Positions 9,628 to 33,805 of a DNA stretch of 64,000 nucleotides are shown here, in pieces. The position numbers and the translations under genes were made by a program. Origin of the DNA: Psilocybe cubensis. Its lineage: Eukaryota. The notes under the pieces were generated by a model. It worked only from the letters and a program-made list of their open reading frames with translations, was not told where the DNA came from and searched no databases. The stretch is from positions 3,348,001-3,412,000 of the forward strand of contig CM038999.1 in the NCBI GenBank assembly GCA_017499595.2, read 5' to 3'. Position 1 is the stretch's first letter, and the number at the start of each line of letters is the position of its first letter.

Positions 9628-9975
9628 GAATCGTGATTGCCAAACTCTAGTTCAAGTGTATTTCTTAAGCTATCTATATTATAGTAACAAATAAAATACT
9701 ATGGCAGTAACATCAATGACCGTTAAAAAAGAGCGCAAATCTCAAGGAAAGGTGTAGCAGTGACTATAATTGCAGAGGTTCGACGAACTTTGACTTGAGG
9801 GTGTTACTGAGACGTCATCGTTGAAAGGGGTACTATTGATCTTGACAAGGTTCTAGAATCGCGAAGAATAATGAAATTAGAATACTTTTTAGTCCCGTAA
9901 CGAAGACATTGTGGATCGTTTTTGGCTCGACACATGGCATTAGAGACTGGCCTCCTTTGTCATTGGGTTTGGATA

Positions 9976-12086
9976 ATGTCGCCGAGATGATGGGCCAACA
10001 AAAAGACAATGGGAGATCCGTGAGAAATCTAAAAGGCACCCTCACGTGCATCTGATTAAACGCGTCGCGGACATAACGCCAAGGCCTTACAGAACACTAC
10101 TTAAAGAGCAGCCAAAATTCGGGTTGACATTCGCTTTTCCACCAGTTTTCGCCACAAATGACCAGCAAGAACGAACACGAGTAAGTTTATGGCAACTCTT
10201 TTCATCTTGATGCTCAACATATCTTCTTCAGTCTAGGTTCCTTGAAGAACTTGAACCCTTCTAACCCTATCACCAACCATAGTGCCATGTCAAACTCAAA
10301 GTCGGGCGTCGTGTAAGTCAGAGCCTCTTTTACTTGTCTCGTACTTTAAACTAACCATATAAATTTATAGAATACCAGACACTCCTCGTAGCCTTAGATC
10401 ATTTGGAGGCGATGCTGGATTGGTGGATCTACGCCCCACGATTGCCAAAGAAATGGACGGCGAAATTGTGGAGTGCTCCGTTGAAGACTTCATAACTACT
10501 TACCTTCCTTTCGCGCCAAATGAAGAGCAGACCCAGCGTCTTGTGCAACAGCTTCTTCAGGAACAACCTCCAGCAGGAGGAAAGGTGGCAACTCGCAGTA
10601 CTAAGGCTCCTAGGCCCTCGATTTTAGTGGGCAACAAGGATCAGTATACCTTCCGTTCATACCCTAATGAGAAGGGAGATGTCAAGCTATCCTCACACGG
10701 CTCTGAGAATGTAGCATTCCGTGGATGGTCAGCTATTGCTGAGGCCATCGCAGCCGCGGCGCCAGCCATAGGACGCCAGGTCACCCAATTCAAGTACCAC
10801 GATATCCCGAACAAAAGGATTGCTTCGGACATCTTGGGTTCTAATAACAGGATTGATGCAGGATTCATTCGTAATTTTGCGGGTACCTCATCTGAGCCCA
10901 GGACCACAGACATAGCCGTCGTCGTAGAGTTCAAACTCGCCACCAATTTGAAACAAGCTGTGAGTTTTCAACCATCTGCTTGGGCACCTCCAAATACTGA
11001 CCTCTGCCATAGAATGCTCGGCAGGCTGTTTCGGCAAACGTTCAAATTATGAACGACGATGTTCGTCGTATGTTCACCTTTGGTGTCAGTGTTGTAGTAT
11101 GACCGTATGAATTTGAAGCAAAACTGACCATTTCCAAAGATCACTGCTGAGTCCTCCGAAGTGACTCTCTGGTATCATTGTCGTTCGCACTCTGCGGTAT
11201 CGAAGCGATTTAATTTTGTCAAGGCAAGGCGAATTTGACAATGGGACTGCTTTTTTCATGTTTACTTATCTGGCCATAGGAACCGCATCTCTTAATCAAA
11301 GTGCTCGCCGCTTTCACCTTTGCCACCGAAGAACAACTTGGTTACGACCCTCTGATTACTAGAGAGCAAGATGGTCGTTATACCTTCAACCTGCCTGATC
11401 CTACCTCATCTGGTCCTCTTCAACAGTTCAGAACTATTGGAACCCTCTCCGAATATCGTACGAACAACATCACCGGTCGCATGGCTCGTGTATACACAGT
11501 CAACAAACTGGACCCCGAAGGGAAACCTGTCGGAGAACCTCTCGTTCTCAAGGACGTTTGGCTGGATGAATCAGCCCAAACTGAGTGGGAAATTCAAAAA
11601 GAAATATTCAAAGATATCGAAAAATTTTGGGCCAGCTCGACGGATATACAGGGGATGAAAGAACTTCACGACACCCACAAGCGTCTTGTTACCAGCGGAG
11701 AATACAAGAAATACTTTCTCGAAATTGTCCTCGATCATGTTGGTACCGTCACTACGAGCCGTCCGGCAGCATCAACCCCTAAACCAGGGCTACTCTTCAG
11801 CTCCACAATGAAAACGCATAATCCGAACATTTCCAGCACCAACAACGTTACGCCTCAGGGTACCGGCACCAGCTCTACCAGCGTTTTTTCCGGGACGCGA
11901 AATACAAACGCTGGAACTCATCCCATAGAATTTGACAATGTCACTCCAGTTCCCGTTGCGGAGCGCCCTTTCAAGCCTAAAAAGCGTTATCAAGTGGTGT
12001 TCAAAGATGTTTGCCTAACCGTGGGGCAACTTACAACCCTTGGTGAAGTTGTGCGTGTGCTGCGCCAGACCCTCATTCGTAAGTGA
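9976..12086. repeat. Left arm of ~2.1-kb near-identical inverted repeat (partner 31647-33757)
   Basis: ORFs 10420-11052 and 11301-12086 mirror 32681-33313 and 31647-32432; the coordinate sums are all 43733. Only scattered substitutions. Confidence 0.95.
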
Positions 12087-13106
12087 CCGACTCGGCACCA
12101 TATTTTGATATCATGCTTATATATCGTCACGCACCAGCTCTTCATCTGCTGCTATGTGCCGGATGGGTACACCGCGACATCAGTTCGGGAAACATTATGG
12201 CACATAGGGCGGATTTAAAGGCTGCCAAACAGCCCTGGCAGGCCAAACTGGCCGATCTCGAATACGCGAAGAAGTTTCCTTCGCTAAACGATCGTGAAGC
12301 TGGTGATCCAAAGACGGTGAGTTGTGCATGACAACGTCTATTCAACATACCATTGTTGATGTGGTGTGCAATAGGGGACCCCATATTTTATGCCACTTGA
12401 AATTATGCTCAAGCACTACCTTTTCGATCCGAGGACACAGGAACATAGGGATGCTGTGGCAAGGGGAGACAAGCCTAAACCATCCAAAGACAAGGTTCGA
12501 GACAAGAAAAAGCAGAAGGGGGACGTTTCTTCACAGCCGGATCCAACCAGACATGTAATTCACAATTTCCAACACGATCTCGAGTCTCTTTGGTGGATTC
12601 TCCTTTGGACTGTTACTTGCCGCATCGATTCTGAAGCTGCTTTCGCTTATGGGAGGCCAATCTTTGTTAATCAAATCATTCCAACCCACGAACGACGAAA
12701 ATGCTTCAAAGCCAAAAGTATTGTGAAGGAGCTAGAGCGGTTCTTGCCACTACCCAAAACAGAGGACGACGACACCCTCGCAGAGATGATCGACAATCTC
12801 AGAGACTTCATGAATGACGCATACGTTGCACGCATCTCCGAAGGCAATGAAGACAAACCCGAGCATTACGTTGAAATATTCGACAACTTCACCTTTTGCT
12901 TCAATGTCATAGAGAACACTGCGTCTGATTGGGCCGATATACCTTTGATTGTACGTACAGCGACCCAAGCTCAACCAGAATCCGTGGTTCCGGGACGACG
13001 CAAACGCACACGCGAGGAAGAAAGCATCGATGCGCGTCAGGTTGACGGGGATGAGAGATCTGAGGCAAAGCTGCCAAAAACGGAGGAATCTGATGAAGAA
13101 GAATAA
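10158..13106 (+). CDS. FunK1-type fungal protein kinase (K-A)
   Basis: ATG at 10158, two short 5' exons spliced in frame, and all FunK1 motifs present (HRDISSGN, LADLEYAK, GTPYFMPLE, HNFQHDLES). Basic C-terminal tail. Confidence 0.9.
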
Positions 13107-13395
13107 AATGTCAATGTAATTTACTCATTTTCGAACACGCGGTTTGTGATTTCAACGTCTCCGAGTCGATAATACTAAATCATAGGTTGGTACTCTATGT
13201 TTACCATACAAATTAATTACTATTTTAGAACAAAATGAATGCAAGGCCTCCCTGTTTAATCCGCCAGAAAAGCAACTAAAACCCACATTCATTCCGGACA
13301 TGGCGAGCTTGACCTTCAAGCATTTTCCGAAACGAAAAAATTGAACGCACCTATGTCGCTCAAGCTAAAAGGTGATAGCGTGTGGTAGGTAGCAA

Positions 13396-13566
13396 ATTTG
13401 TGGGACCGTGGGACATCCACAATCACAAAGGTCCAGTGCTCGATGTTTTTTCGCTTTCGCCTTACCAGTGCCCACTCGTGGTTCTACTTGCTTGATCTGT
13501 GTTCTGCGCTACAAAGTGTACTCAGCCCTCCCGACGTTGCTCTGCGCCGGATGGGTCCATCGGGGA
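13396..13566 (+). pseudogene. Small FunK1 kinase remnant
   Basis: Encodes C-GTVGH and LLCAGWVHRG, matching the paralog exons around LLCAGWVHRD. Truncated shortly before the repeat at 13.6 kb. Confidence 0.6.
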
Positions 13567-13604
13567 GCCTTGACTTGTGTGAGGCATACAATTGGATGGG
13601 TGTT

Positions 13605-13852
13605 AGGTGCGAGGTCGAGGTCGAGGTCGAGGGACAGTCCAAGCTCTGGTATTCAACAGCGTAGAGGGGGAGGGCATGAGCAGTGCTTCTTGCTGAGGAG
13701 GGATGCATGACTTGAGGAGTGTTATGGTTGCTTATCGACGACGGGATGAACGACGGAAACGGAGAGCAAGACAACCAACGAGGAGGGAGTGGGCGGAGGG
13801 CATCATAAGCTACTCTGTGGGACGGTGAAGGGTGCCGGTGGTGGGGAATGAG
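13605..13852. repeat. ~250-bp purine-rich repeat, inverted copy at 30131-30381
   Basis: GAGGTCGAGGGACAGTCCAAGCTCTGG...GGTGCCGGTGGTGGGGAATGAG aligns with the reverse complement of 30131-30381. Confidence 0.85.
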
Positions 13853-14198
13853 ATGGTCACAATCGACAACAAACAGGATCTCAACATCTCACATGCCGCC
13901 GGTTGCAACTTGCCCACCAACTTCCAATTGTCGCTTTGTTGTGGTTGACAATTGCATCTTCACCCGGAAAGCATGCCTCTGACTTCATTTACATTAGACG
14001 AGAACCTTCCTTGACTCCAATGGGTATCCGCGTTTGGTTTATCGAATCCTAGTCGAAATTCCTTTTGGCCTCAGGCGTAGACCCGGGTTGGCCGATACTG
14101 GGTTCCGTTTGCTTATTGAAAGCAGACATGTAGTTTTCTTAATATGGACTTGATATTTAACCAGCACTTGGAATTCCTGCATTACCCCCTTGACGAAT

Positions 14199-16710
14199 AT
14201 GGCTATCCTGCAGATCATATCCGCTCTTACAGTTCTATGGATCTCCTTGGGTTTCCTCAGGCGGCGTCTCTATCCAACAGTACTAGAAAATGTTCCGGGG
14301 CCTCCTGGCGAGTCTTGGATTGCAGGTAAGCCCTAAAGCCGACATTTCTCTTTGTTACATTGTCATGTTTTTTTTTTTTTTTTTGAATATGTTCAGGCTC
14401 TTTGAATTATGTGCGGAACCACAAATGATGGGATTATCACCAAAATCTTGCTGATACATGTAAGCGCTCGCATCTTCGCTAAACATCTTTTAATTATCAT
14501 TATCAAGTTGGGAAGGTTGTTCGTCTGAAAGGAGCATAGAAGTCGGATAGGCTCCTCGTATTCGATCAGAAGGCCATGTACCATGTTTTGGTCAAGGTGT
14601 GTAGGATTTTTCTAGCCCGCAGTATTTCATGTAATGATACAACGGACGTCAAGGACTATAACATCTATGAAGAAACAGACTCTTTTATCGAGTAAGAGCT
14701 GTCACTGCTTGGATTGACATCTTATATCTCATCTTGACTTGAAGGGGAAATAAAATTATGTTTGGACATGGCATATTCACTTCGCTAGGTTCGTACGCCG
14801 CAATCTTGACGAATCATGGCTCATATTAACTCATTGTAGGGGACGAACATAGGCGCCATAGGAGGATGTTGAACCCTGTCTTCTCAAGTGCTCATATGCG
14901 ACAAATGGGTGCGCATACTTTTACCTTGCGTGATGCTTCCGTTAGGTATTTATTAATATACAATTCCAATATTTTACGAGGTTGCACACAAGGTAAACAC
15001 CTCTCCTATACCAAACCCTCGCCATTTCCTAATCAATTCTTTTCTTAGGTAAAAGACGTGTTCCTCAACAAGGTTCAGAATGGGCCACAAGAGGTAGATA
15101 CTTCTGTACTCTACTTCGTCCACAGTGTGCTCAAGTGTTTACAGGTGGACGTTGTCAATTGGATGACACGCCTGGCGTTGGAACTCATTGGGCAAAGCGG
15201 TCTCGGTTACTCGTTCGACGAATTAACCGAAACCAGCCCTCAACATAAATATGGTTTGATGTCGAAGAAACTTGTGTGAGTTATTTTTCAGATGCATGTC
15301 GCCTCATAGACACTCAAAATCTGGTTGCGCTTAGTACCATGCAAGGGGACGAATTTGTCCGAGACTGGGTTATGCCGAGGCTCACTAGAATTGGCACACC
15401 TGCGTTCCGTAAATTTCTGGTCGATTTGATGCCGTTTGAGGCAATTGCTGGCATGAAAGAGATCGTGAATGTCTTGCACGATACCTCCGTGCTGATCTTT
15501 GAAACGAAGAAAAAGGCATTAGCTGAGGGAGATGAAGCCGTGCAAAACCAGGTCGGCAGAGGGAAGGATATCATCAGCATCTTGAGTGGGTATTCTAGAT
15601 TACTTTTACTATATTCGTTAATCCTCTTTCCATGAAACGAAACGTCCTGGCGTCAGATGAAGACAAGCTCTCTGACGAGGAGGTTTTGGCACAAATCACG
15701 TATGGGTTTTAGCCTGCACTATATTGCATAGCCTCTGACAATCGGCTTGTAGCTCGTTGACGTTCGCTGCAACTGATACTACCTCCGGGGCTCTGTCCCG
15801 TATTCTTCACCAGTTGGCTATCCACAAAGACGCCCAAGACAGGGTCAGAGAAGAAATCAAAGAAGCGAGACGGGAGAATGGTGGACAAGACATTGGCTAT
15901 GACGAATTGGCTACACTACCCTACCTTGACGCGGTATGCAGAGAGACTCTCCGGCTGTACGTATGCACTGGCACTACCTGGTGAGATAGAAAAAACATTG
16001 ATTTGCCTCTACCTACAGTTATCCCCCGATTTCATGGGTTCCAAGAGAGTAAGTATCGTTCTCTAACAAGGTCGCGTTGTTGCTTATACACTCTCAGGGC
16101 CAATGAAGATGTTATACTTCCTCTATCCAAGCCGATCAGAGGTTTGAATGGCGAAGAAATTCGGGAAATACCTGTTCCCAAGGGGACCAATGTCAGCGTC
16201 TCACTTCTAGCAGCTAACAGAGACCCAGATCTGTGGGGACCTGACGCACTTGAATGGAAACCTGAGAGGTGGTTGAACCCTCTTCCTGAAGCTTTGGTCG
16301 AAGCCCATGTACCCGGAATATACTCACATTTGTAAGTCAAGTATGCGAGATATGATATGCAGCGTTAATCCTGTGACGCTTTCTTCTGCAGGATGACATT
16401 CCTGGGAGGCGGTCGGTCCTGTCTGTGAGTATCCTTCTTTGCAATATTCCTCAAGCACACTGATATCTTCCCCAGTGGATTCAAATTTTCCCAACTGGAG
16501 ATGAGTACGTAGTTTGGTCCCAACACTATCTATACTCTTGATAATCTGACGAATTCTTCAGAGGTTGTCCTCACTTTGTTGCTGGAAAATCTTGAATTTT
16601 CGCTCAGCAAACAACCGATTATCTGGCAAATGTTTGCCATATCCACACCCAACGTCGATCCCGACAGTGTGATACCCACCATGCCGATGATCATCAGCAT
16701 GGCTAAGTAG
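14199..16710 (+). pseudogene. Cytochrome P450 (CYP5150-like) pseudogene
   Basis: I-helix FAATDTTS, ETLR, KPERW and heme loop FLGGGRSCxG are present. In-frame stops TGA 14426 and TAG 14537, and two splice acceptors lacking AG (~14963, ~15632), relative to the intact neighbour. Confidence 0.8.
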
Positions 16711-17289
16711 CCGACTCCAAAGATCTTGCGCCCACTTCTCTTGCCATGCTCGAAACGCCTCGTTTGTCCCTACAGTCTAATTTTTCCTTTACATGTATAT
16801 AGATATAATTGTATGACCTTTTATCAAATCATGCTGCGGAAACGAAAGGCCTTCTCGATGAATGTTTCGGTATGGTACCCGCGACTGTATTATTTCGCTC
16901 ATCATGGTAGACTAATATTGTCACTTGGGTGATGCAGTGCACGTCGATAAGGGGTTTGATTGGTCAATCAATGCCATCATGACCCACAGCCAAGACCGGA
17001 TAGAGCGCTTCCTTCCAGCCGTACCACATCTCCCCACTTGAGCTCCGCGCCTCGTCTGAAGTTTTCGTTCGATTACTCTCTGGAGGCATGTATCCTCTTA
17101 AATTCGATAAATGATACGGCCTCGGACCATGAGAGGTATGATCAAACTCCCCGATGTTCTCAAAATTCCTAGAAAATATAGAGTACGCTTGGGATGACGA
17201 GCCAATGCGCGCTTGTGGATACCGCCGTGCCCGAAATAGAGCGCAATTTAAAAAGAGCCTTGGGATTGGAGATGAAATTATCCGACGTG

Positions 17290-19920
17290 ATGCCTCCCCT
17301 TCCGACTATCATCACCTCTCTCGCCATTTTGTGGCTCTCATTTCGCCTTATCCGTCGTCGTCTGTTTCCAACTGCCCTCGAGAGAATTCGTGGTCCACCT
17401 GGAGAGTCGTGGATCACAGGTATGTTGTCCATGTGTTTCTGCAAATTGTCGACTTGAATTCTTTCCTGAAACGCTATATATAGGATCTCTCAGCCAATTG
17501 CAGCATCATAAAGCCTGGAATTTTCACCAGCATATTGTCGATACATGTTCGTGCATTTCGATTCTTGCTAGTAGTAGCACTGATTAACCATTTGCACGAA
17601 GATGGGAGCGTCGTGAGGACTAAGGGTGCATTCGGGGTAAAGTTGTTGTGGTAAACCGATGGTCATTAACTGAAAGAGACGTTTGTTACTCACAGGCGGA
17701 TAATCTCTATCTTTTCGACCCGAAAGCCATGCACCATATTCTTGTCAAGGTATGCATCAGGCCACAAGCGCTTTGTGACCCTTATATTCTCACTGAGAAT
17801 TATATCACATCAAGGATCAGCACATTTACGAAGAAACTGACTCTTTCATCGAGTGAGTATAGAATATGCTGTTTTGCGCTCAGTATATTTATGTCCACTC
17901 TGTAGAGGAAATAAAATCATGTTTGGTTCTGGAATTTTCACGTCGTTGGGTGAGTTTTCAAACCTGTAACGGATTGGACAGGCGGACAACTCGGTTCTGA
18001 TTACAATAGGAGACGAACATCGGAGACATCGAAAAATGCTCAATCCCGTCTTCTCTAGCGCTCACATGCGCCATATGGGTATGGTGATCCTTTCTCTCTC
18101 ACAGTACTCTTTGCCATTAAATCGCTGTTCTCAATAACAGTCCCCATATTCTATGATGTTACACGGAAGGTACAGTTGACAGGCGGTATATCCATCTCAC
18201 TACGGACTTACATCTACTCAATGCAGGTGAAAAATCTCCTAGTCGCCAAGACTCAGACAGGACCGCAAGAGGTGGGTTTTAAATAACAAATGAATTGGCT
18301 AGACTCCAATGATTGTCCGCTGGCAGATTGACGTCGTAAGTTGGATGACACGTCTTGCGATGGAGATTATAGGTCAAAGTGGGCTTGGCTACACATTCGA
18401 CGACCTAACCGAAAATGGTGTCCAACACGAGTACGTCGTTGTCTCTAAACGGTTGGTGTAAGTATTGGTCCCCCGCAATCCGTGTTGTACCCTATTTAAA
18501 AATTTCTAATGCTCTGATTCCAGCACAATGCAAGGAAACGAGTTCATACGCGATTTTGTAATGCCCAAAATAGCCAGAATTGGGACTCGTTCGTTCCGAA
18601 AGTTCGTTGTCGACATCATGCCATTTGCAGCCGTCAAAGAGATGAAAAATATTATTGATGTGCTGTACCGAACTTCTGTGGAAATCTTTGAATCAAAGAA
18701 AGAGGCCATTGCGAAGGGAGACGAAGCACTTGCAGCCCAGGTGGGAAAGGGAAAAGACATCATTAGCATTCTGAGTAAGATGGTCAACTTAAAAAAGAAA
18801 ATCATGTTTTAACTGGACGTTTTGTAGTGAAAGCAAATATGCTGGCCGACGAAGGGGAGAAGCTTTCGGACGCCGAGGTCATCGCTCAGATAACGTCCTT
18901 CTTCTCTTCTATTGACAAGAGGCAATTTGAAACTCATTTTCTCTTCCAGGTCTTTGACATTTGCGGCCACTGATACAACCTCAGGTGCCCTGTCTCGAAT
19001 CTTACACCAGCTTGCCATGCACCCGGATGTTCAGGCTAAACTGCGTCAGGAATTGAACGACGCGAGAAAGGCCAACGGAGCTGAAGACCTTGATTACGAT
19101 CAACTTGTGTCCCTGCCATTCTTGGATGCAGTATGCAGAGAAACGCTTCGCCTGTGAGTTTATCACCTTTTCTCAGTCCTACGCCAGAGTGCTGATCTGA
19201 CCATTTACTCCTAGATATCCCCCAGTATCTATGGTTCAAAGAGTGTACGAAATTATTCCCCATGATAGCTCCAACAGCAACTAATCCTCAGCTTAGCACC
19301 CGTCAGGACGCCGTATTGCCCCTGCTTAATCCTATCAAAGATTGTAATAACAACGAAATCCGAGAAATCCCCCTACCAAAAGGTACCACCGTACTTGTAT
19401 CAATTCTCGCATCAAACAGAGATCCAAATATTTGGGGGCCGGACGCTCACGAGTGGAAACCCGAGAGATGGCTTAACCCACTTCCCGAAAATTTGATTGC
19501 TGCCCATGTCCCTGGTATATATTCGCACTTGTAAGTGGAAAGAACAAGCTGGTTGAAAATAGTAACCACAATATATTGCAACAGAATGACTTTCCTCGGC
19601 GGAGGAAGATCCTGCATGTAAGAGAATTTGCAGCGTCTAATACCATGTTAATTTATTGCTCACATATCTATTTTTCTTAGCGGATTCAAGTTTTCTCAAT
19701 TGGAAATGAGTAAGTGGATTGACTACATGTATACAACGGAGTTCTATAACACCTATTTGTAGAGGCCGTCATCTCTTTACTCTTACAAAACCTGGAGTTC
19801 TCTCTTGGGCGGAAAAAGATTATTTGGCAGATGTTTGGAATTGCTCAGCCCAACATTGATCCGGATAGCGTGAATCCAACTATGCCCATGATGATATCAA
19901 GTGTTCAATGTGAGGCATAA
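17290..19920 (+). CDS. Cytochrome P450, CYP5150-like (multi-exon)
   Basis: N-terminal anchor plus RGPPGESW; motifs FAATDTTSGALSR, CRETLR, WKPERW and MTFLGGGRSCIGFKFSQLEM; stop TAA at 19918-19920. Family assigned from motif recall only. Confidence 0.88.
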
Positions 19921-20905
19921 TTCATTAGTGAGAAAAGAATCACCCTTACAGATACTATTATTTACAGAATCAGTAGATATACATAGCTTAACTCGCTAAG
20001 TAAATTTGCTCTGTAACTATAACTCGCGTTCGGATTCCGGAATGACCCCTATGCAACTCAAGTCGCGTCAGTCGCGTCGCTCCTGTGATCGAGATTCTAG
20101 GGTCATGTGATCAGAAGTTACTGTCGGCCACCAGCTCGAAGGGTTGTCAATGCTCTCTGAACTGCACTCCAAGCATCGTACCTGATCTTAACCCGCGCGA
20201 ATCTGACCTTCTAGTTTATCCTGCAACTCCGACATATCCCACCAATGCTCCATCCTGCAGAATGACAGTCGCTTTATAACTCTCCTTTCTTTTCGGCGTT
20301 ATACGTCATGTCAGGCTATTCATTTATGCAAATTTTTGGCCAGGTCATGGAATCACAACCGTCGGAGCTGCAAGATGACGACGACAAATCTTGTCCCAGT
20401 GCTGAGTTGACAACAAACTATCCCGCTCGCATCTTTCGAGACTTGGAAGGACTGGGGATAGCGGGGTTCTTCCAGAATTTACTCTCAAAGTAGTTGGTGT
20501 TGGATGAAAGCAAAGTTTTGACCTCATCCCGGTAAGTACGCCTCGCACGCTACCCATTTTCTTTGAGGCCAAGCAACAACAAAATGTTTAGTCGGTCGCT
20601 CGAACGTTACGCCATGCAAGCGCTCTGTTGTTATACCCCCGTTCATCATGTCATTTCACAGGGTACCATATCCAACACTCTCCGTGCCATACTTCGACAA
20701 TTGTGCCATCAAATATGGTTGATAAACCCCTTCCGAATGACTAATGATACACCTCGGTTATACATTCTGTCGTTGGTTCCATGAACTTATGAGTCACTCC
20801 AACTATAAGTGGCTTATTAATATGTATGCCAGGCGACGTCTTCACAGCTGCTTATCGCTGTATAAATAAGGGAAGGAATGAGTCCCGTTCAAGTTGTGTT
20901 AAAGC

Positions 20906-22836
20906 ATGAAATACTTTCCGATATTTTCGACGACATTGTTGATTATATCTTCTAGCTTGCCTCTGGCCGCTACTGCAAGGGTAGATGGCTTGACAGTCCA
21001 AACGGTACAGGGACCTGTATCTGGCACATTGGTCTCCCAAAATGTTCGCCAATTTCTCGGGGTACCCTATGCAGTGGCTCAGCGTTGGGAGGCGCCTGCC
21101 AACCCACCGAATCGAACATCTGTCTTCAAAGCCAGCAATTTCAGTGCTACATGTCCGCAGAATCTCACTCCGATTTTTAAAGAAGCCCTGGTACTTGCGG
21201 GAGGACAAGGAATAGATATTCCAGAGTCAGAGGACTGCCTGACAGTCAATATTTGGGCACCGAGCATAAAGCGACAGCAACAAACGGCGGTTCTCGTCTG
21301 GATTTATGGTGGAGGTTTCCAATTTGGCTCGGTAAAGGTGTTTTTGTACTACAGTGGTTAATGTCGCTAACCTATACATATTTCATGTAGAGCAATCTAC
21401 CTCAGTACAGTGGTGAGAACTTCGTAAACGATCACGACGACATCACGGTCGTGACATTCAACTATCGTTTGAACATATTCGGCCAACCAAACTCACCCCA
21501 GCTTGCAAACACAACGTCTTCTCAGAACTTTGGTCTACTTGATATCAATGCAGCTATTCATTGGGTCCACGCGAACATTGGTGCATTCGGGGGCGACCCA
21601 GATCGTATCACCATATTTGGGCAAAGTGCTGGAGGTCTCGCAGTCGATGCTTATACGTATGCGCACCCGAACGATACAGTGGTGAAAGGTTGGCTCTGTT
21701 TCTTCTATCCATTTAGAAACGGTTAAATAACACTTCAAGAAATGTAGGTGCCATCGAACAGTCTGGAAAGTAAGTTACACACCACTCAAACGCGAATGAT
21801 AAATTTTGATTTTTCATCATAGTCTTGGATTTGCGACAAGTGGTTTCATTGCCAGTTCAACCATAGACGGGACATGGAACACTTTGGCGTCGAGCGTTGG
21901 GTGTGGAAATGGTAAGTTGAAGGAATATGACCCGTTCCGACCACTAATTGTTCCTCGCAGTTTCTGATTCCGCTCAATTGGCTTGCATGAAAGCCGTACC
22001 CTTCCGCACATTGAGGGATGTAGTCAGCGAATCGGGATTAACATTCAATCTCCTCTTTGATAGTATGTCCTCATTTCTACGCTATTAGACTACAGCTTAT
22101 CGAAGTATCTAGATATCACTATATTCTCCGATATCCAGGAGCGCGCAAAAGCAGGAAACTTTTTGCAAGTACCGCTTTTGGGTGGTAGCACCCTTAACGA
22201 AGCAAACGTTCTCACAGTGGCTGCTGACGTGGCAGGGCTGTCTCCACCCACTTCCCCCTTCGTTTCCGAGGTAGTTTCTGATGTACAGACTCAGGTAAGC
22301 ACCTCCACTTTTTGGCTAGCAAAAATATTTACACATCACCTTAGGTGAATTGGACGTGCCCGGCAGGCTCTGCAGCCCAAGATCGTGTGAATGCGGGTGT
22401 ACCTACATGGCGCTACCAGTATCAGGGTAAGGATACAATATGTCTCGTTCAAGCTTCCGTTTAGTTTATTGGATTTTCTTTAGCTGTCTTCTCCAATATC
22501 TCACCACGTCCAGACCTTGGATCCTATCATCTCTCCGAAATCCCTATAGTATTTGGCACATATAAAACGGTGAACCCTTCCATCCCGGTGACGCCCAACG
22601 AAAGAGCCCTATCCAAGTATATTCAAGGCGCTTGGGTTGCTTTTGCGAAAAATCCCAGACGGGGATTAATTGACTACGGGTGGCCCTTGTACAACGCTAC
22701 GACAAACAGCACAGTGGTTCTTGGAAATTTCATGAATTCGACAGGGACAGTATTCACCAAAGGAGCAACTCTCGATTCGACATGTGGAAGTGTTACACAG
22801 CTCCTCGACTTTGCGGCCTTTGTCACACAAGTCTAA
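20906..22836 (+). CDS. Secreted type-B carboxylesterase, copy 2
   Basis: Signal peptide; motifs SEDCL, YGGGF, GQSAG, GSTLNEA and SYHLSEI (Ser/Glu/His triad candidates). Confidence 0.92.
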
Positions 22837-24090
22837 GGATGCATACTTTTGCACTCTGGGATTTCCGTCGATTTCCTTCCTATGATATCGCATTTATATA
22901 TAATATCTTCGAATGTTTTTCGTATTGCTATGTAAACACTTCAATAGTTTATCTGAATAAACTTCTGTGAGCTTACGTTGAAAGCACTGGCAAATGGTCG
23001 GAAAATTTCCATTTACACCAGTTTACTTGCGAGGCTGGCAGCGTATTATACGCAGATGTGCCATAGCTTCAGAAACCGATAGAACTATTCTGTTCTTTGC
23101 GCGCTATTGATGTTTTCGTCTGTACACAGAAACGTGTATTCTCTTGATATCAGCAGGAACGCAATGCTCAAGACCTTGATTCACCTATCAAGACACGTAT
23201 TTCCGTTTCTCAGGTTCATCAACTCGAGTGTACATCCTCTCATTTTAGTTGAAAACGCTTTGAAGTACCATACCCAGACGGTGGGTTATATCCTGTAATA
23301 CCCCTTTTTTATGTGATAGTTTGATCAAAGACCATGTGAAGCCCCTAATTTCATTAATTTTCAATCACGCGATCGCGATTTAACGTTGAAAATTCGGCGG
23401 GAACCGCTTCCTTTCCCTCCGCTCACACTTTGCTGCTTCAGTAATTCATACCGGCATATTTCAAGGATCTGACACTCTTGACAGAACGTTCATCCTGAAG
23501 TACGCTATGGTGCACTAACGAGATTCGCTTGGGAAACTTCTCATTCAATTTCTATTCAAAGTTCACAGACGGAGGACGAGCCGCGCCATCGGAAGCGGTC
23601 CCGACCATTGCACTGGATGACAAGACCCTCTCAGTTTGTCAACAACGCATTACTGGCACAAAATTGTTTTCCAGTGGCCTGTTTATTAATTCACATCGAG
23701 GGCGGATTCGCGCTCCACCCTGACTTGGGCTGGACACCAAGGGCTCACAGGGATGTGGACGGCAGGTTGTTCTCCTTGACTGTGCAAATTGACCTCTGAA
23801 GGTACCACCATAATCACCCGGACAAAAATCTATTCAAACAGTGGGGGATATGTTGATATCTTCTGTGCATCTGCCTGCTAAAAATCAAAGTATTACACAG
23901 GAGGCGACATCTCATCCAGGGATTGTCCAACAATTGCGGACTAAATATAGCATCGTATGCAACCTCGGCTGCATGAAATTGTGAGTCACCCCAACCACCA
24001 CCGAGTGTGCTTTGTAAAAGATATTCACCGACATTTGAAAAGGTATAAAAGCGGGCCCAAAATGGCGTCTACAAAATCATCTGTTTCCGT

Positions 24091-26017
24091 ATGATCCTCT
24101 CGACCTTATTCTTGGTTATATCTTGCAGCTTCTGTGTGGCCATTGGGTTGAAGTCGGACGGCCTGATCATCCACACAGCACAGGGACCGGTATCAGGCAC
24201 ACTGGCTACCCCAAATGTTCGCCAGTTCCTTGGAATTCCTTACGCAGTGGCTGAACGCTGGGAGGCGCCCACCAACCCACCTAATCATACATCTATTTTC
24301 AAGGCCAGCAATTACAGTGATACATGTCCTCAGAATCTTTCCCCACTCAATAAGGGCGTGTTATTGGTTGCGGGAGGGCAAGGCATCAATGTATCAGAAT
24401 CAGAGGACTGCCTCACGGCCAACATATGGGCACCAAGCATAGGGAGACAACAAAAAACGGCAGTCCTCATCTGGATATATGGTGGAGGAATTCAATTTGG
24501 CTCGGTAATAAAATTTTCTTTTCTTTTGGATGACCGCTGACTGGTGCTAATTAATGTACACCCGTCTATGTAGAGCAATTTACCGCAGTATAATGGGGAA
24601 CACTTCGTAAATGATCACGATGACATTACTGTGGTGACATTTAACTATCGTTTGAACGTATTCGGCCAACCGAACTCGCCACAGCTTGCGAACAGGATGT
24701 TAACGCAGAACTTCGGCCTACTTGATATCGATGCAGCTATTCATTGGGTGCATGCAAACATTGGTGCGTTTGGAGGCGACCCAGAGCGTATCACTATCTT
24801 TGGGCAGAGTGCCGGAGCTCTTGCCGTTGAAGCTTATACATACGCGCACCCTAATGACACCATCGTGAAAGGTTAGTCATCGCTTATTTTATGCCACAGA
24901 CATGGGTAATTCACATTTCAATGAGCTTAGGCGCTATCGAACAATCTGGAAAGTGAGTCAACCTTCACATAAATGAATTCTTTTAAATCTTTCTTTTAGT
25001 CTTGGATTCGCAACAAGTGGTTTACTCAGCAGTCCAACCATTGACGGAACATGGAATACTTTAGCCTCAAAGGTTGGGTGTGGAGCAGGTAAGATGTCGA
25101 ATGACCGGATACCAATTATCATGACGAATTATTTGCAGTTCCAGATGCCGCTCAGCTGGCTTGTATGAGAGCTGTACCTTTCCGTACATTGGAAGATACA
25201 GTCATCCGATCAGGATTGATGTTCAATCTCCTCTTCGATAGTACGTGTATGTCACTATACTATCCAAGTATGATGGAACTCATTAAAATTTCTAGACATT
25301 ACCCTTTTCTCGGACATCCCAGAACGCGCCAAAGCTGGAAAGTTTTTGAAAGTGCCGTTGTTGGGCGGCAGCACCGCTAACGAGGGGGATATTCTCACCG
25401 TGGCTGCTGAAGTGGCTGGGCTGTCTCCGCCTGCCTCTCCCTTTGTTTCTGAGATACTCTCAGATGTACTAACCCAGGTAACCTGCTTCCCTATTACTAC
25501 CTTTTGCCTGCTTCCAACTTATACAATCTACAGGTCAATTTTACGTGCCCTGCAGGTTCTGCCGCTCAAGATCGTGTCAATGCAGGCGTTCGAACCTGGC
25601 GCTACCAATACCAAGGTAAGGTTTCTCTAACTTAAAAGCACTTATCTCACATTTCATGCTGCAGCTGTATTTCCCAACATATCTCCACGCCCCGATATCA
25701 GGTCTTACCATCTCTCCGAAATCCCATTAATTTTCGGGACGTACAAAACGATCAATCCCTCCATTCCCATTACGACCAACGAAATCTCTCTTTCTAAGTA
25801 TATGCAAGGTGCTTGGGTTGCCTTTGCAAGGAATCCAGACCGGGGGCTGGTCGATTATGGATGGCCTCTGTACGATGCTGCGACGAACAGCACGGTTGTT
25901 CTGGGAAATTTCTTAAATCCAACGGGGATCGTGTTTACCAAAGGAACAATTTTGGATTCGACTTGTGGGAACGCGACACAACTCTTCGACTTTGCAGCAC
26001 AGATTTCCAAAGCCTAG
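24091..26017 (+). CDS. Secreted type-B carboxylesterase, copy 3
   Basis: Signal peptide; motifs SEDCL, GQSAG, GSTANEG and SYHLSEI. Closest to copy 1, including the 3' flank. Confidence 0.92.
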
Positions 26018-26179
26018 TGATGTATAATACAAGGCTCAAATTACCGTGTCCATCCTCGAAGTCGGATTGTTACTATTGAATACATTCAAATGGTTCTATC
26101 TAGCATTGGTGTTACAGGCTGAGTAAATATTCCAACAAACTATTACACAGATATATTCCTTCACTCTCATTCGAAGAAT

Positions 26180-29043
26180 TTACTTTTTCTTCTTGTTCGG
26201 CTTGGATTGGGCTGCATCCCCTCTCTTATCACCCTGAGACTCGACATTCTCTTCCGAATCAGCTCGTTGTCGTTTACGAATCGGTGCTACAGATTCCTCC
26301 TCGACACTATCGGTACTTTTCCGTGTGATTAATTCAATGGACGACCATTCCGTTGCGGTCGCCTTCATGGTATCGAAGACGAGATCGAAGTCGTTGTAGA
26401 TAGAGCAGTATTGTTCGGGGTTAAAGTGAGTCCGTGTACCCACTCGTTTGACGTAATGCAAGTTCATGAGATATCTCAAGACATTCACCAACTCGGGTAG
26501 GCTGTTCTCTGAAGTTGAAGGCGGGAGAAAACCTATGAGCTTCTCAAGAAGCTCTGCGTCATCCGTGAAGCATTCAGCTCTTGCATATGATGGCTTCATC
26601 TGATTCACGAAGATAGTTCTCCCGTATGCGAAGGCGGCGTCTGACCCAATGCGACAGGTGAGAGTCCAGACCAAAATCCACCAAAGAGACTCTAGATCAT
26701 GCTGAAAATTGTGCACGACTATCTTGGAGGACGCATCCAGCCCATCGGATTTTCTGGTGGCCCTCAATGCCCCGCCTACGATGTCTGACGCACTGACCAT
26801 GGGAGCTGCCCACAGTGTAGCTTGCTTTGCATTGAACAGATAGCTTTTTTGCATTACTTCAAGAGGCATGAAGTATGGTGTTCCCTAGAATTCAAAAACG
26901 TTAACTGCGTTGCTTTCATCTCGCAGAATGTCAAACCTACCGTCTTGGGGTCGGCTGCTGGTTCACAACGCGGCATGGGAAATTTCTTTGCATATTCCAA
27001 GTCTGAAAGTTTCACGACCCAAGGTTGGTCGCCGTTTTCCAGGTCTTGACGATATGCCATAATATTTCCTGAGCTGATGTCTCGGTGAACCCAGCCAGCA
27101 CAAAAGAGAAGTTGAAGTGCTTTGTGTTGAGCACGTAAGTAAGCGTACGATCGTTTATATGAATATCTAATGAATGCTCACGGATGAGTGCTTGTCGCAA
27201 AACATCAACGACTTCGCCCAGTGTTTCAAGTTTACCCACTGTCTTACAAACCTCGTTATATATTACGCGATATTGCTTTTTGGGTTCAAATCCTCGAATA
27301 GGCCTAGGTTCGACTTCAGAATCCACCGGGGGTCGCGTATCCTCGCCAACGTCGCGGACGAGAGAGGATGGAGTCGCTGTTCCACTCCTCGGATTGGGAG
27401 GTGCTGATTTTTGAGATGGGTCGAAAAGAATCTTCTTCTCTATTCTGGCACTTTTGGGATATTCTTGGGTAGTTTCCCCAGAGAAGCTGAGGACTATTTG
27501 AAGAAAATATTGTTTGTATTCCTGATTTTCGATCAAGTGTTTGAACTTTTCCTTGAGCTTTTTCATTTCCACACTCGGTGCCTTTTCATTTTTCCAAAAC
27601 GTTTCGATGTCATCGAAGATAGATTCCTGGATTTTTTCTTCTGTGCATGCAGAAGTGTCAAGCCAAACATCCTTGAGAACAAGGTGATTCCCATAGGGCG
27701 CGCCTTGATCATCAAGCCTTGTAACTGTATAAACGCGAGCCATACGTCCAGTTATGTTGTTCGAACGATACTCTGAGAGTGTGTTGATGGTGCGATAGAG
27801 TAGGGAATGATTCTCTCGTTTCGGGTCAGGGAATTTGAAAGTGTAATGGCCATCTGGCTCCCGAACGATTGTGGGATCGTACCCAAGCTCTGCCTCTTTC
27901 GCAAACAAGAAGGCGGCAAATACTCGAATTAATACCCCAGGGTCCTAACTACAGCGTCAGTTCACAGTCAAAAATATGCTTGTCAATTAACATGCCGTGA
28001 TGAAATTGAAGGGCTTGGAGACAGCAGAGTGCGAGCGGCAGTGATACCAAAGGGTAACATAATCACACTCGACAGTTATCTATGAACAGTATAGCGGTTA
28101 ATTACCATCAACTCAAACAAACAGAGCATATCTGACCCCAAATGTAAACATTCGTCGCACATCGTCATTCATAATCTGCGCATTTGCAGAAACAGCCTGT
28201 AATGCATTCTGACGCAGAATCATTTAATTAAGGGAGAGCATGCCGCAAGTAGCAAAGAGAAACATACCTCTCGCCTCTTGGAAGCAGTCTTCAACCGCTT
28301 CTGTTCGATGACAACAGCTATATCCGTGGTACGCAGTTCTTTTGAATGTGCATTCTGCCTTAAAAACGCAGCATCGATCATGTTGTTGGACCCCTTGATA
28401 TCTGATGCGATCTCTTTATTAGGCATGTTCCGATATTCAAAATTGTTAGCTGCGCGATTATCGTTGTAAAATTTGAGGTTCCGAATGGCATGAGCGATAT
28501 CAAGCCAACCCTTATATGCAGAACTTTCGCTGTCATGAGAAGATTGTGTGATCATGCCCGGTTTTGGATAGTTGCGGAAGCGGAAGGCTTTCTCGTCTCC
28601 AACCAAGATGGAAGACTTTGGTTTCGCGGCATTACGAGTGATTCTGGCGCCGTCCGCAACAGGCGAGGGATTTATCTCTTTGAGTAATTTCTCAACGAGA
28701 ACAGCCATCTCGGCGTCATTGGGAGCAAAAGGAAGGTATGTTTCAATGAAATCCGTAACTGGACACCTGACAAGTTCAGCGTCCATTTCTTGTGCAATTG
28801 CCGGACGAAGTTGGACGACACCAACATCGCGCCCGAAAGACTTCTGGCTACGAGGGGTGTCTGGAACACTGGTAAACCATTCAACTTTAGCTCGCTGATT
28901 ATCAAGCGTTAAATAATCTGGAGCACATACAGAGTTGTGCCTCGGACAACATTGTTAGTAGGAGTAGGAATACTAATTATATCTCAGTGTCGGCGAAGTG
29001 AAAGAGTGTGGAAGCCTCACCTTGGGTTTGTGTTCTTCACCAT
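26180..29043 (-). CDS. FunK1-type fungal protein kinase (K3)
   Basis: ATG at 29043 with the same 5' short-exon layout. Motifs IMNDDVRRMFTFG, ELGYDP, VLKDVW, GWVHRDISSGN, LSDLEYAKK and HNFQHDLES. C-terminal RKRQR...KPNKKKK. Confidence 0.9.
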
Positions 29044-29432
29044 GATGCAGTATTGGGGAGAGGGGGTTGAGGATACCCTCCAGATGGCAGGCCAGTTTAA
29101 GTAGTTTATCGTAAAGAGCTTGGCAATGGATTCGCGACGCGCTCAAACTTGCACGTGATGGTGCCCTTGATTCTCACGAATTACCACTGTCTTTCTGCTG
29201 AATATTGCTTTTGGCACTGGATGGCCCATAAAATGCCACACTCAAGCCTTCCATTGTTTGAATTCGCCAAAAAGACTCACCTAAATATTGTGCTTCATGA
29301 CCTTAGAATTGGCAGTATGCCACATAAGCTTTGTTTGAGACTACACTGAGTAGGGCCTTAGGCCCTTAATCATAACTCGAACACAGATAAATGGCACAAG
29401 TTGCGAAGCAGGATAAAGGACGAAGGAAAAAC

Positions 29433-29510
29433 TTCGGGTACGGGGAATCGAACCCCGAGCTGCCGCGATCACGTGAGAGGCGGCAATGTTAGCCGTTACA
29501 CCATACCCGA
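29433..29510 (-). tRNA. tRNA-Glu(CTC) with 6-nt intron
   Basis: TCGGGTA...TACCCGA acceptor stem, GCCGC/GCGGC anticodon stem with CTC, GGTTCGATTCC T-arm, and a downstream T5 terminator. Length 72+6 nt. Confidence 0.92.
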
Positions 29511-29896
29511 CGATAACCAGAACGCCTGGTGTGCACAGTTTCAATTCACCGTGGCATTAGTCAATGAATTCGGAGTTTTCAGTGCGATTGACGCGGCACT
29601 ATGGCGGTCCATCTGGGAATTTAATTCATCATAGGGAACTAGATAGCCCAAGAGATAGCCACAAAGGTTTTTTTTGCAAGGTACATCGGTGGAAACGTGG
29701 TAACACATACTCTTCTAGTATATTTCATCTGGTTTTTAACCAGAAAATTACCAGCCAAGCGACTAAATTCAAAGTCGTGTTTGGCCTGCCATAAACCCAA
29801 ACCGGAATGAACCAAAGTATACTCAGGATACGGTCCGTCAACGTTCAGGCCCAGGCCCCAAGACTTGCAATAACATGTTTATGAAAGAGTGAATTT

Positions 29897-30088
29897 TTGT
29901 TCAACACGACTAGAATACAGGGAGTGGCAACGCGGACTGCATACATCCAACAAAACCGGCGAGTTGGTAGTTCTGATGAAGACCGTCTCATTGCTTCGGT
30001 TTTCGTCATATTTACCCCAATATATATCACCACGAACTTCGTTTCGCCTCCCTATAGCATGACTTTCTCTTGGCCTGCCTTTACCAGA
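29897..30088 (-). pseudogene. Duplicated 3' end of the gene at 34646-36278
   Basis: SGKGRPRESHAIGRRNEVRGDIYWG...TTNSPVLLDV plus 3' flank match 34600-34797. Confidence 0.9.
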
Positions 30089-30130
30089 TGCGTTCGATGT
30101 CGCGGAAGATGGCATCCTGCAACTGTCTCT

Positions 30131-30381
30131 CCTCATTCCCCACCACCGGCACCCTTCACCTTCCCGCAGAGTAGCTTATCATGCCATCCGCCCATTCCCT
30201 CCTCGTTGGTCGTCTTGCTCTCCGTTCCCGTCGTTCATCCCATCGTCGATAAGCAACCATAACCCTCCTCAAGTCATGCACTCATCCATCCCTCCTCAGC
30301 AAGAAGCACTGTTCGTCACGTCCTCCCCCCTCTAAGCTGTTGAATCCCAGAGCTTGGACCGTCCCTCGACCTCGACCTTGC
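30131..30381. repeat. ~250-bp repeat, inverted copy of 13605-13852
   Basis: Direct visual alignment with the reverse complement. Confidence 0.85.
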
Positions 30382-30626
30382 ACGTACGGAATGAATGTTT
30401 TGTTTTACATATTTTTGTGGCGGATCAGAAAGGTAGGCCTTGTGTTCATCATTTGCCTTCTTCGAGACTTCAAGACGACAGCACGATAATGTACTAGTTC
30501 ATAAGTAGTAGTTAATTTGTATGGTAGACACATGAATACCTACATACGATGTAGGAATGTATATATACATTGAAGGTACAAGCCGCGTATTTAAAAGTAA
30601 ACAAATGAGTAGTAGACATTAAAATT

Positions 30627-33575
30627 TTACTCCTCTTCCTCATTGTCTTCCATCTTTGGCAGCTTTGCCTCAGATCTCTCCTCGCCGTCAACCAGGCGCG
30701 CATCAGCGATGCTTTCTTCCTCGCGTGTGCGTTTTCGTCGTCCCGGAACCACAGATTGTGGCTGACCTTGGGTTGCTGAACGAGTAATCAAAGGTAGTCC
30801 AGCCCAATCAGACGCAGTCTCCAGCATTGTATCGAAGCAAACATTGAAGTTTGCGAATATTTCAACATAATGCTCGGGTTTGTTTTGATTCCCTTCGGAG
30901 ACGCGGGCAACGTAGGCGTCATTCATGAAGTTCCTGAGATTGTCAATCATCTCTGCGAAGGTGTCCTCATCCTCTGATTTGGGTGCCGGCAAGAACTGCT
31001 CCAGCTCGTCCAGAATGCTCTCGGCGTTGAAGCAGTCTTGTCGTTCGTCGGTTGGAATGATTTGATTGACAAATATTGGCCTCCCATAAGCGTAAGCAGC
31101 TTCAGAATCGATGCGGCAAGTAACAGTCCAAAGGAGAATCCACCAAAGAGATTCGAGATCGTGTTGGAAGTTGTGAATTACATGTCTAGTCGAAGCCGGC
31201 TTTGAGGAAACGCCTCTCAGCTTTTTCCTGTCGCGGAACACAACTTTGGCTGGTTTAGCCTTTTCTCCCCTTTCCAGAGCAGTGGTGTGTTTCCGTGTTC
31301 TCGGATGGTAAAGGTAGCGCTTGAGCATAATTTCCAGTGGCATAAAATATGGGGTTCCCTATTAGACGCCACATCAATGATGGTCCGGTAATTGAGCCTT
31401 TTCATGCAAAACGTACCGTCTTCGGGTCAACAGATTTTTCATGAGCATCGTGTTGAGGAAACTTCTTTGCATATTCGAGATCCGCCAACTTGGCCTGCCA
31501 GGGCTCTTTATCGTTCTCTAATTCGACCTTGTGTGCCATAATGTTTCCCGAACTGATGTCACGGTGGACCCAATTGGCACAGAGCAACAGCTGAAGAGCT
31601 AGTGCGTGACAAAGCGTAAGCATAATGTCGAGATATGGCGAGTCAATCACTTACGAATGAGGGTCTGGCGCAGCACACGCACAACTTCACCAAGGGTTGT
31701 ATGTTGCCCCACGGTTAGGCAAACATCTTTGAACACCACTTGATAACGCTTTTTAGGTTTGAAAGGGCGCTCCGCAACGGGAACTGGAGTGACATTGTCA
31801 AATTCTATGGGATGAGTTCCAGCGTTTGTATTTCGCGTCCCGGAAAAAACGCTGGTAGAGCTGGTGCCGGTACCCTGAGGCGTAACGTTGTTGGTGCTGG
31901 AAATGTTCGGATTATGCGTTTTCATTGTGGAGCTGAAGAGTAGCCCTGGTTTAGGGGTTGATGCTGCCGGACGGCTCGTAGTGACGGTACCAACATGATC
32001 GAGGACAATTTCGAGAAAGTATTTCTTGTATTCTCCGCTGGTAACAAGACGCTTGTGGGTGTCGTGAAGTTCTTTCATCCCCTGTATATCCGTCGAGCTG
32101 GCCCAAAATTTTTCGATATCTTTGAATATTTCTTTTTGAATTTCCCACTCAGTTTGGGCTGATTCATCCAGCCAAACGTCCTTGAGAACGAGAGGTTCTC
32201 CGACGGGTTTCCCTTCGGGGTCCAGTTTGTTGACTGTGTATACACGAGCCATGCGACCGGTGATGTTGTTCGTACGATATTCGGAGAGGGTTCCAATAGT
32301 TCTGAACTGTTGAAGAGGACCAGATGAGGTAGGATCAGGCAGGTTGAAGGTATAACGACCATCTTGCTCTCTAGTAATCAGAGGGTCGTAACCAAGTTGT
32401 TCTTCGGTGGCAAAGGTGAAAGCGGCGAGCACTTTGATTAAGAGATGCGGTTCCTATGGCCAGATAAGTAAACATGAAAAAAGCAGTCCCATTGTCAAAT
32501 TCGCCTTGCCTTGACAAAATTAAATCGCTTCGATACCGCAGAGTGCGAACGACAATGATACCAGAGAGTCACTTCGGAGGACTCAGCAGTGATCTTTGGA
32601 AATGGTCAGTTTTGCTTCAAATTCATACGGTCATACTACAACACTGACACCAAAGGTGAACATACGACGAACATCGTCGTTCATAATTTGAACGTTTGCT
32701 GAAACAGCCTGCCGAGCATTCTATGGCAGAGGTCAGTATTTGGAGGTACCCAAGCAGATGGTTGAAAACTCACAGCTTGTTTCAAATTGGTGGCGAGTTT
32801 GAACTCTACGACGACGGCTATGTCTGTGGTCCTGGGCTCAGATGAGGTACCCGGAAAATTACGAATGAATCCTGCATCAATCCTGTTATTAGAACCCAAG
32901 ATGTCCGAAGCAATCCTTTTGTTCGGGATATCGTGGTACTTGAATTGGGTGACCTGGCGTCCTATGGCTGGCGCCGCGGCTGCGATGGCCTCAGCAATAG
33001 CTGACCATCCACGGAATGCTACATTCTCAGAGCCGTGTGAGGATAGCTTGACATCTCCCTTCTCATTAGGGTATGAACGGAAGGTATACTGATCCTTGTT
33101 GCCCACTAAAATCGAGGGCCTAGGAGCCTTAGTACTGCGAGTTGCCACCTTTCCTCCTGCTGGAGGTTGTTCCTGAAGAAGCTGTTGCACAAGACGCTGG
33201 GTCTGCTCTTCATTTGGCGCGAAAGGAAGGTAAGTAGTTATGAAGTCTTCAACGGAGCACTCCACAATTTCGCCGTCCATTTCTTTGGCAATCGTGGGGC
33301 GTAGATCCACCAATCCAGCATCGCCTCCAAATGATCTAAGGCTACGAGGAGTGTCTGGTATTCTATAAATTTATATGGTTAGTTTAAAGTACGAGACAAG
33401 TAAAAGAGGCTCTGACTTACACGACGCCCGACTTTGAGTTTGACATGGCACTATGGTTGGTGATAGGGTTAGAAGGGTTCAAGTTCTTCAAGGAACCTAG
33501 ACTGAAGAAGGTATGTTGAGCATCAAGATGAAAAGAGTTGCCATAAACTTACTCGTGTTCGTTCTTGTTGGTAAT
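30627..33575 (-). CDS. FunK1-type fungal protein kinase (K-B); first ATG changed to ATT
   Basis: 5' half near-identical to K-A. The diverged 3' half retains HRDISSGN, LADLEYAK, GTPYFMPLE and HNFQHDLES. An in-frame ATG remains in exon 2 (~33446). Confidence 0.8.
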
Positions 33576-33757
33576 TTTTGGCGAAAACTGGTGGAAAAGC
33601 GAATGTCAACCCGAATTTTGGCTGCTCTTTAAGTAGTGTTCTGTAAGGCCTTGGCGTTATGTCCGCGACGCGTTTAATCAGATGCACGTGAGGGTGCCTT
33701 TTAGATTTCTCACGGATCTCCCATTGTCTTTCTGTTGGCCCATCACCTCGGCGACAT
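31647..33757. repeat. Right arm of ~2.1-kb inverted repeat
   Basis: Reverse complement of 9976-12086. Confidence 0.95.
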
Positions 33758-33805
33758 TAGTCTCGGCCTCATCCTCTTTCGGATATTGGTGGGAGGCCGA
33801 GACTA
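33758..33805. mobile_element. 48-bp miniature inverted-repeat element
   Basis: 13-bp TIRs TAGTCTCGGCCTC / GAGGCCGAGACTA and a flanking 9-bp direct repeat CGGCGACAT (33749-33757, 33806-33814). The site is single-copy in the paralog (9976-9984). Confidence 0.85.

Follow-up and report, generated by a model that had tools for sequence, protein, structure and literature searches.

The window, by which we mean the whole 64-kb stretch of Psilocybe cubensis DNA that was analysed, contains several FunK1 genes, of which K-A and K-B, putative kinases of the FunK1 family as judged from their sequence, form a convergent pair (Table 1). Stop-to-stop reading frames and splice sites place seven introns in K-A, with an ATG at 10158 and a stop codon at 13104-13106, and K-B mirrors this structure on the minus strand from 33575 down to 30627. 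A preliminary description of this DNA had proposed that K-A (plus strand) and K-B (minus strand) converge on an interior holding P450, esterase and K3 genes. The gene coordinates and strands agree with the convergence, and the interior does hold P450 and carboxylesterase genes, two of each, along with a third FunK1 gene. The K-A exon at 12129-12308, which we call the HRD exon, carries the motif VHRDISSGN, and the last exon at 12375-13106 carries GTPYFMP. VHRDISSGN occurs in both of the diverged 3' halves (P0014 and P0002), and the 3' halves of K-A and K-B both look intact. At the other end of the genes the pair is less uniform: opposite the ATG of K-A, K-B has ATT at 33573-33575, with 10160/33573 as the differing site, and P0002 is annotated as starting from the following in-frame ATG, at about 33445.

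The assignment to the FunK1 family is based on Pfam and on protein searches. PF17667 (Pkinase_fungal, FunK1) matches three of the four K-A exon translations scanned, two of them above the gathering cut-off. The exon at 11280-12083 scores 46.1 bits (cut-off 24.1), the HRD exon 28.6 bits and the K3 exon 59.6 bits. The same family is precomputed for P0001 and P0002, and altogether it is matched or annotated in K-A, K-B, K0 and K3 as well as in another copy, at 59.1-61.7 kb, the FunK1 copies in the window being clustered and rich in paralogues. The family is greatly expanded in Coprinopsis, and to our knowledge the rapid expansion of FunK1 in mushrooms has no explanation. When the exon at 11280-12083 was used as a protein query, it found the 100%-identical JR316_0002597 (816 aa) and JR316_0002604 (825 aa), both from Psilocybe cubensis and on one contig, and it also matched JR316_0002595 (K0, 79%) and JR316_0002602 (K3, 50%). 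This search was made against longer proteins only and gave 13 matches at E <= 1e-10 among 3490 candidates. The protein search and the cluster look-up yielded only the JR316 models plus a second UniProt model set, in which front and back both come from K-A in P0014 and both from K-B in P0015, so that the 5'/3' pairings are the same as in the JR316 models. This second set appears to be a re-annotation of the same assembly, without an independent view of orientation. K0, which is 60-85% identical to K-A and K-B alike, was used as the unconverted comparison.

Table 1. Features of the K-A/K-B locus, in positions of the window.
Feature	Position	Strand	Content or basis
Left arm	9974..12097	+	184 nt 5' of the ATG, then K-A as far as 18 nt into intron 6 (with exons 1-6 and introns 1-5)
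Right arm	31636..33759	-	K-B counterpart of the left arm; 14 substitutions against the left arm
57-bp insertion 5' of K-B	33760..33816	-	With an 11-nt direct repeat at its bounds; the high-identity tract ends here on its outer side
K-A intron 6	12080..12128	+	Inner tract edge: 12087 and 12088 substituted, 3-nt indel at 12095-12097, identity of 71% from there on
K-A, putative FunK1 kinase, JR316_0002597 (P0001; alternative model P0014)	10158..13106	+	Frames, splice sites, Pfam, protein search
K-B, putative FunK1 kinase, JR316_0002604 (P0002; alternative model P0015)	30627..33575	-	Frames, protein search
K0, FunK1 paralogue, JR316_0002595 (P0003)	5290..8117, start approximate	+	In tandem with K-A at a spacing of about 4.97 kb
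Segment between the arms	12098..31635		19.5 kb: K-A 3' half, two P450, two carboxylesterase, K3, K-B 3' half
Two P450 genes	about 14.2-16.4 and 17.2-19.6 kb	+	Inside the segment
Two carboxylesterase genes	about 20.9-22.9 and 24.05-26.03 kb	+	Inside the segment
K3, FunK1 gene, JR316_0002602	28954-26183	-	Inside the segment

A repeat search found a single long inverted pair in the window, with arms of 2124 nt that are 99% complementary and are separated by 19,538 nt. In a MAFFT alignment of arm against arm, 2107 of 2121 columns are identical (99.3%). The remaining 14 columns are substitutions, which lie in left-arm numbering at 9987, 10001, 10155, 10160, 10165, 10222 and 10879 and, further inward, at 10985, 11033, 11528, 11975, 12031, 12087 and 12088, and a 3-nt indel at 12095-12097 closes the inner end of the tract. 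The arms had earlier been placed at 9976-12086 and 31647-33757, within 2-11 nt of the computed coordinates, and the substitutions between them had been put at about a dozen, near the 14 that the alignment gives.

The homology between the two genes extends past the arms on both sides. Inward of the arm it is collinear at 826/1012 matches (81.6%) over 12098-13103, in line with the clear divergence of the 3' halves that had been described, and outward it is collinear at about 80% in 9870-9969. Given the 81.6% background, the binomial probability of at least 2107 matches in 2121 columns is 10^-160. As Jukes-Cantor distances, the arm gives about 0.007 and the 3' part about 0.21, which makes the last homogenisation younger, by a factor of some thirty, than the divergence of the remainder.

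One conceivable source of the arm identity is purifying selection on the protein. The comparison by region rules this out. The upstream 184 nt are 98.4% identical between K-A and K-B, introns 1-3 inside the tract are 98-100% identical, and the exons inside the tract are 99.6-100% identical, with the exception of the 23-nt exon 1 (21/23). Outside the tract the values are 71% for introns and 78-84% for exons. The identity from arm to arm is therefore independent of coding constraint, and since introns and upstream DNA are as alike as exons, protein selection cannot be its cause. Both edges of the tract coincide with heterologies, the 57-bp insertion on the outside and the indel-bearing intron 6 on the inside, where the arm ends 7-18 nt into the intron. 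A sharp stop of identity before the HRD exon and an insertion on the right side were both part of the preliminary description, and both are present: the stop falls within the intron that precedes this exon, and the insertion measures 57 bp. If the tract was copied from one gene to the other, an ending at such heterologies would be the expected behaviour.

Near-identical repeats commonly arise from the mis-assembly of dikaryons, and the preliminary description had named an assembly or haplotype artefact among the outcomes that would refute it. Twelve sequencing runs from four studies are listed, none of them long-read, and four of these are flagged as runs from which the window may derive. We examined four of the twelve runs, none of them flagged as source and together from three studies: contigs were used for X5 and X10 (two studies), and raw 151-nt pairs for X11 and X12, which belong to the same study and may be related. 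All four were aligned to positions 8600-14000 at 90% likeness. For the means of raw-read depth the bin 10953-11133 was excluded, as a short motif common to other paralogues inflates the counts there. The ratio of depth in the arm to depth in the left flank is 1.89 in X5, 2.07 in X10, 2.30 in X11 and 2.11 in X12. In X5 and X10 a single-copy contig ends at 9967, a contig of double depth runs from 9938 or 9988 to 11616, and a single-copy contig picks up again at 12057. Contigs stop at the arm edges (9967/9988 and 12086) in both contig runs. Among the raw reads, 9 in X11 and 3 in X12 run from the K-B-specific insertion into the arm with the matching 11-nt step-back joint. Two arm copies and the tract edges are real and are common to other samples. 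It is hardly conceivable to us that the second arm stems from an assembly or haplotype duplication, or the identity from purifying selection. The depth is doubled over exactly the arm in four of four runs, reads cross from the insertion into the arm, single-copy contigs adjoin each arm edge, and introns and upstream DNA match as closely as exons do.

The raw reads also show how the letters that distinguish the arms are distributed in other samples. In the single-copy flank both X11 and X12 prove heterozygous: the minor-type fractions at 8931, 9166, 9876 and 9927 lie at 0.27-0.74, which means four arm copies per sample. Letter ratios cover six of the 14 arm sites in these two samples. The K-B letter was read in 41/49 (X11) and 64/75 (X12) cases at 10001, in 37/51 and 66/82 at 10160, in 35/48 and 66/82 at 10165, in 33/49 and 58/72 at 10222, in 58/69 and 41/49 at 11528, and in 65/65 and 41/41 at 11975. 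The K-B letter thus has a share of 67-85% at each of the first five sites, and at 11975 it is the only letter read (100%). A ratio of 1:1 is rejected in all 12 site-by-run tests, and 3:1 is acceptable in nine of the ten tests at 10001, 10160, 10165, 10222 and 11528. None of the four runs showed the G that the K-A of the window has at 11975. Under a reciprocal crossover or inversion the ratio stays at 1:1, and for the letters of one paralogue to be in excess, non-reciprocal transfer or a new mutation is required. Ordinary point differences between haplotypes, without conversion, are another possible source of the 3:1 pattern.

The start-codon site is among those that vary. The preliminary description had contrasted a left side with ATG and a right side with ATT. 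This contrast is present in the window, but it is no fixed property of the loci: the ATT letter at 10160 makes up 73% of the reads in X11 and 80% in X12. The ATG/ATT difference is polymorphic, with ATT the commoner state in these two samples, and is not fixed to either locus. ATG looks like the ancestral state, because the homologous N-terminus of K0 is also started by ATG (MTPKNE vs MTSKNE).

Taken together, these observations make it probable that the 5' 2.1 kb of an old, inverted pair of FunK1 paralogues, about 18% diverged, have been homogenised by interlocus gene conversion that is recent and still recurs. We favour this reading because a tract of 99.3% identity sits inside collinear homology of 80-82% on both sides, because the identity ignores coding status, because both edges fall at indels, and because the letter ratios are about 3:1 or fixed. 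Recent gene conversion had been mentioned in the preliminary description as the simpler alternative, and the flanking homology, the intron identity and the non-reciprocal ratios now back it. In such a process a copy with a break would be repaired with its partner on the same chromosome as the template, and the copied tract would extend until it meets a heterology, which would be the 57-bp insertion on the outside and the diverged, indel-bearing intron 6 on the inside. The outcome would be concerted evolution of the promoter-proximal region and of the non-catalytic N-terminal half. The homogenised part would also take in the front of the kinase fold, up to position 295 of the 387 in the profile, and the C-terminal halves with the HRD motif would remain different. 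A crossover in the arms would be an occasional by-product of this process, with no programmed switch involved. Comparison with K0 and K3 gave no clear donor or direction of transfer, as their divergence is too great for most of the 14 sites to be polarised and the alignment shifts close to the start codon. A trace of an old crossover was sought in the upstream flanks, where the three flanks are roughly equidistant over only about 150 nt, too short a length to use.

Arms of this length and likeness are a good substrate for non-allelic crossover. The preliminary description had reasoned that an inversion would swap the catalytic halves of the two genes. The geometry is consistent with this, as the arms are the outer 5' halves of convergent genes: wherever in the arms a crossover fell, it would turn 12098-31635 around and swap the diverged, HRD-bearing 3' halves between the genes, and both products would stay intact in-frame genes. 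Occasional crossovers of this kind might have left both orientations, and with them both 5'/3' kinase combinations, among P. cubensis strains, as an unprogrammed inversion polymorphism that would add to conversion and would resemble the flip/flop region of Saccharomyces chromosome XIV. Such a polymorphism is in keeping with 2.1-kb arms that are 99.3% identical and 19.5 kb apart, with the signs of repeated exchange that the arms show, and with the expected intactness of both crossover products. However, both annotation versions carry the same 5'/3' combinations, though apparently they describe one assembly, and we regard the polymorphism as possible but rather unlikely. Since reads of 151 nt cannot span 2.1 kb and the contigs end at the arm edges, the short-read data give no orientation.

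A more far-reaching proposal is a programmed flip-flop, in which a regulated inversion, for example at starvation or fruiting, would put either catalytic half behind a given upstream context. The proposal was made by analogy with Ogataea polymorpha, and the dimensions on which it was founded are accurate. The region that inverts in that yeast spans 19 kb and lies between two 2-kb inverted repeats that are identical (PMC5720833), and the P. cubensis locus is a near match, with inverted repeats of about 2 kb around about 19 kb on one chromosome. It would also suit a switch that the outer flanks differ farther than 184 nt upstream of the start codon. Several observations speak against it. The data consist of short reads and of contigs ending at the arm edges, neither of which spans an arm, and they hold no positive evidence for a switch. 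The arm edges lie at indels within continuing homology, which fits a conversion tract and not a dedicated repeat. The ATG/ATT difference, which would have made the two sides unequal in function, is polymorphic, at about 3:1 in X11 and X12, and similar but older paralogues surround the pair in a freely duplicating family. The GC content is 0.43-0.51 throughout, with no AT-rich or otherwise distinct block adjoining either arm, which is weak evidence against a switch based on silencing. [quoted passage not shown] Starvation induction and centromeric silencing are thus features of the yeast system, whereas the P. cubensis locus is likened to it by its dimensions alone. The O. polymorpha repeats are also identical and do not splice gene halves, whereas the P. 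cubensis arms differ at 14 sites and end inside genes. We therefore consider a programmed flip-flop highly improbable. If it were true, the locus would be an inversion switch that recombines the halves of protein kinases in a mushroom.

Under the favoured reading of recurring interlocus conversion, the finding is mostly ordinary, as conversion between inverted paralogues is a known process. Its value is that it would provide a clean eukaryotic case of concerted evolution confined to one gene half, and this in the FunK1 kinases. There are also practical consequences. Short-read assemblies of P. cubensis collapse or break at the locus, which makes gene models and strain comparisons there unreliable. 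The letters that distinguish the paralogues, including the one in the start codon, are polymorphic, and the annotated difference between K-A and K-B is therefore no fixed feature. Should crossovers take place, a non-recombining block of 19.5 kb, with two P450 and two esterase genes in it, would be present in heterozygotes, and the pairing of catalytic half and flank would vary from strain to strain. Our literature search found no paper that joins FunK1 with gene conversion, and among papers on P. cubensis genome assembly and inversion, judged by their titles and the beginnings of their abstracts, there was none on this locus.

Concerted evolution of inverted paralogues by gene conversion is known from the tufA and tufB genes of Salmonella. 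The inverted repeats of mammalian X chromosomes are a second example of inverted paralogues homogenised by conversion, as cited in PMC9731477. The P. cubensis pair resembles both in having a tract of high identity in older inverted paralogues, with inversion as a possible by-product. Unlike tufA and tufB, it is a eukaryotic pair of intron-bearing kinase genes in which the tract stops at an intron and the HRD half stays diverged.

The closest analogue is the unprogrammed flip/flop region of 24 kb on Saccharomyces chromosome XIV. This region has 4-kb inverted repeats formed by paralogous genes (YNL018C/YNL034W, Centroid), which are continually homogenised by gene conversion, and about 4% of these conversions have a crossover as their outcome (PMC9731477). 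The same text reports that both orientations recur in every species, and that about 53,800 mitoses and 950 meioses passed without an observed change of orientation (PMC9731477). The two loci have in common paralogous inverted repeats around about 20 kb of unrelated genes, kept alike by recurrent conversion, and in both the repeats are beyond the resolution of short-read assemblies. They differ in what the repeats contain. Whole genes lie in the 4.2-kb repeats of Saccharomyces, whereas only the 5' 2.1 kb are homogenised in P. cubensis, where an inversion would make reciprocal kinase chimeras. And while the account documents both orientations in many Saccharomyces strains, the P. cubensis locus is known here in one assembled orientation.

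The 64-kb window contains no fewer than five FunK1 genes, together with one fragment. K0, a close FunK1 paralogue of the convergent kinase genes K-A and K-B, forms a tandem duplicate with K-A at a spacing of about 4.97 kb. Between the two lies an open frame that starts with GTPYFMP. Its only resemblance is to a FunK1 gene's C-terminal exon, and Pfam gives no match to it at E <= 0.001; the frame looks like a truncated FunK1 copy. The additional FunK1 gene is located directly past the retrotransposon.

Features of the window, with position and strand
Feature	Position	Strand	Remark
K0/K-A tandem units	5020-9800 and 9837-13900		block identity 77-88%
FunK1-like open frame, 246 aa	8887-9624	+	between K0 and K-A
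Additional FunK1 gene	59090-61655	+	PF17667 match on 60603-61655
Arm difference	10155		position -3 relative to start codon
Arm difference	10160		ATG>ATT
Arm difference	10165		Ser>Asn
Short read-attracting stretch	11046-11083		coding ...MNDDVRRMFTFG...
Short read-attracting stretch	12564-12596		coding ...NFQHDLESLWW...
Repeats of ~156 nt	13697-13852, 30132-30287, 29933-30088, 34640-34795		92% alike
Carboxylesterase paralogue	2678-4658	-	
Carboxylesterase paralogue	20903-22900	+	
Carboxylesterase paralogue	24049-26030	+	
Open frame, 920 aa	49022-51781	+	
Ty3/gypsy-type LTR retrotransposon	52788-58431		

Three of the 14 differences between the arms, the inverted 5' parts of K-A and K-B, follow one another at intervals of exactly 5 nt in the region of the start codon. 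The second and third of these have equal read fractions in the raw read runs X11 and X12, as if their letters were linked on one copy. At the two short read-attracting stretches, 39-56 reads per run carry flanks unlike the window; these stretches are conserved motifs of FunK1 copies elsewhere in the genome, which cross-map at 90% likeness. The repeats of about 156 nt are found downstream of K-A and K-B and also upstream of K-B. The raw reads show elevated depth over 13668-13848, where loose ends are numerous at both 13722 and 13766, and part of this stretch is therefore a dispersed genomic repeat.

The LTRs of the retrotransposon (52788-53087 and 58132-58431) are 300 nt each and 96% alike, and it has a single open frame of 1659 aa on the minus strand, with matches to protease, RT, RNase H, integrase and chromodomain. 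The 920-aa frame, which falls where the GC content of the window peaks (0.51), has no Pfam match whatever at E <= 0.01. The three carboxylesterase paralogues form an identity mosaic of 74-93% depending on the block, with 93%, for instance, between 3231-3462 and 25250-25481, a pattern that may reflect older exchange among them.
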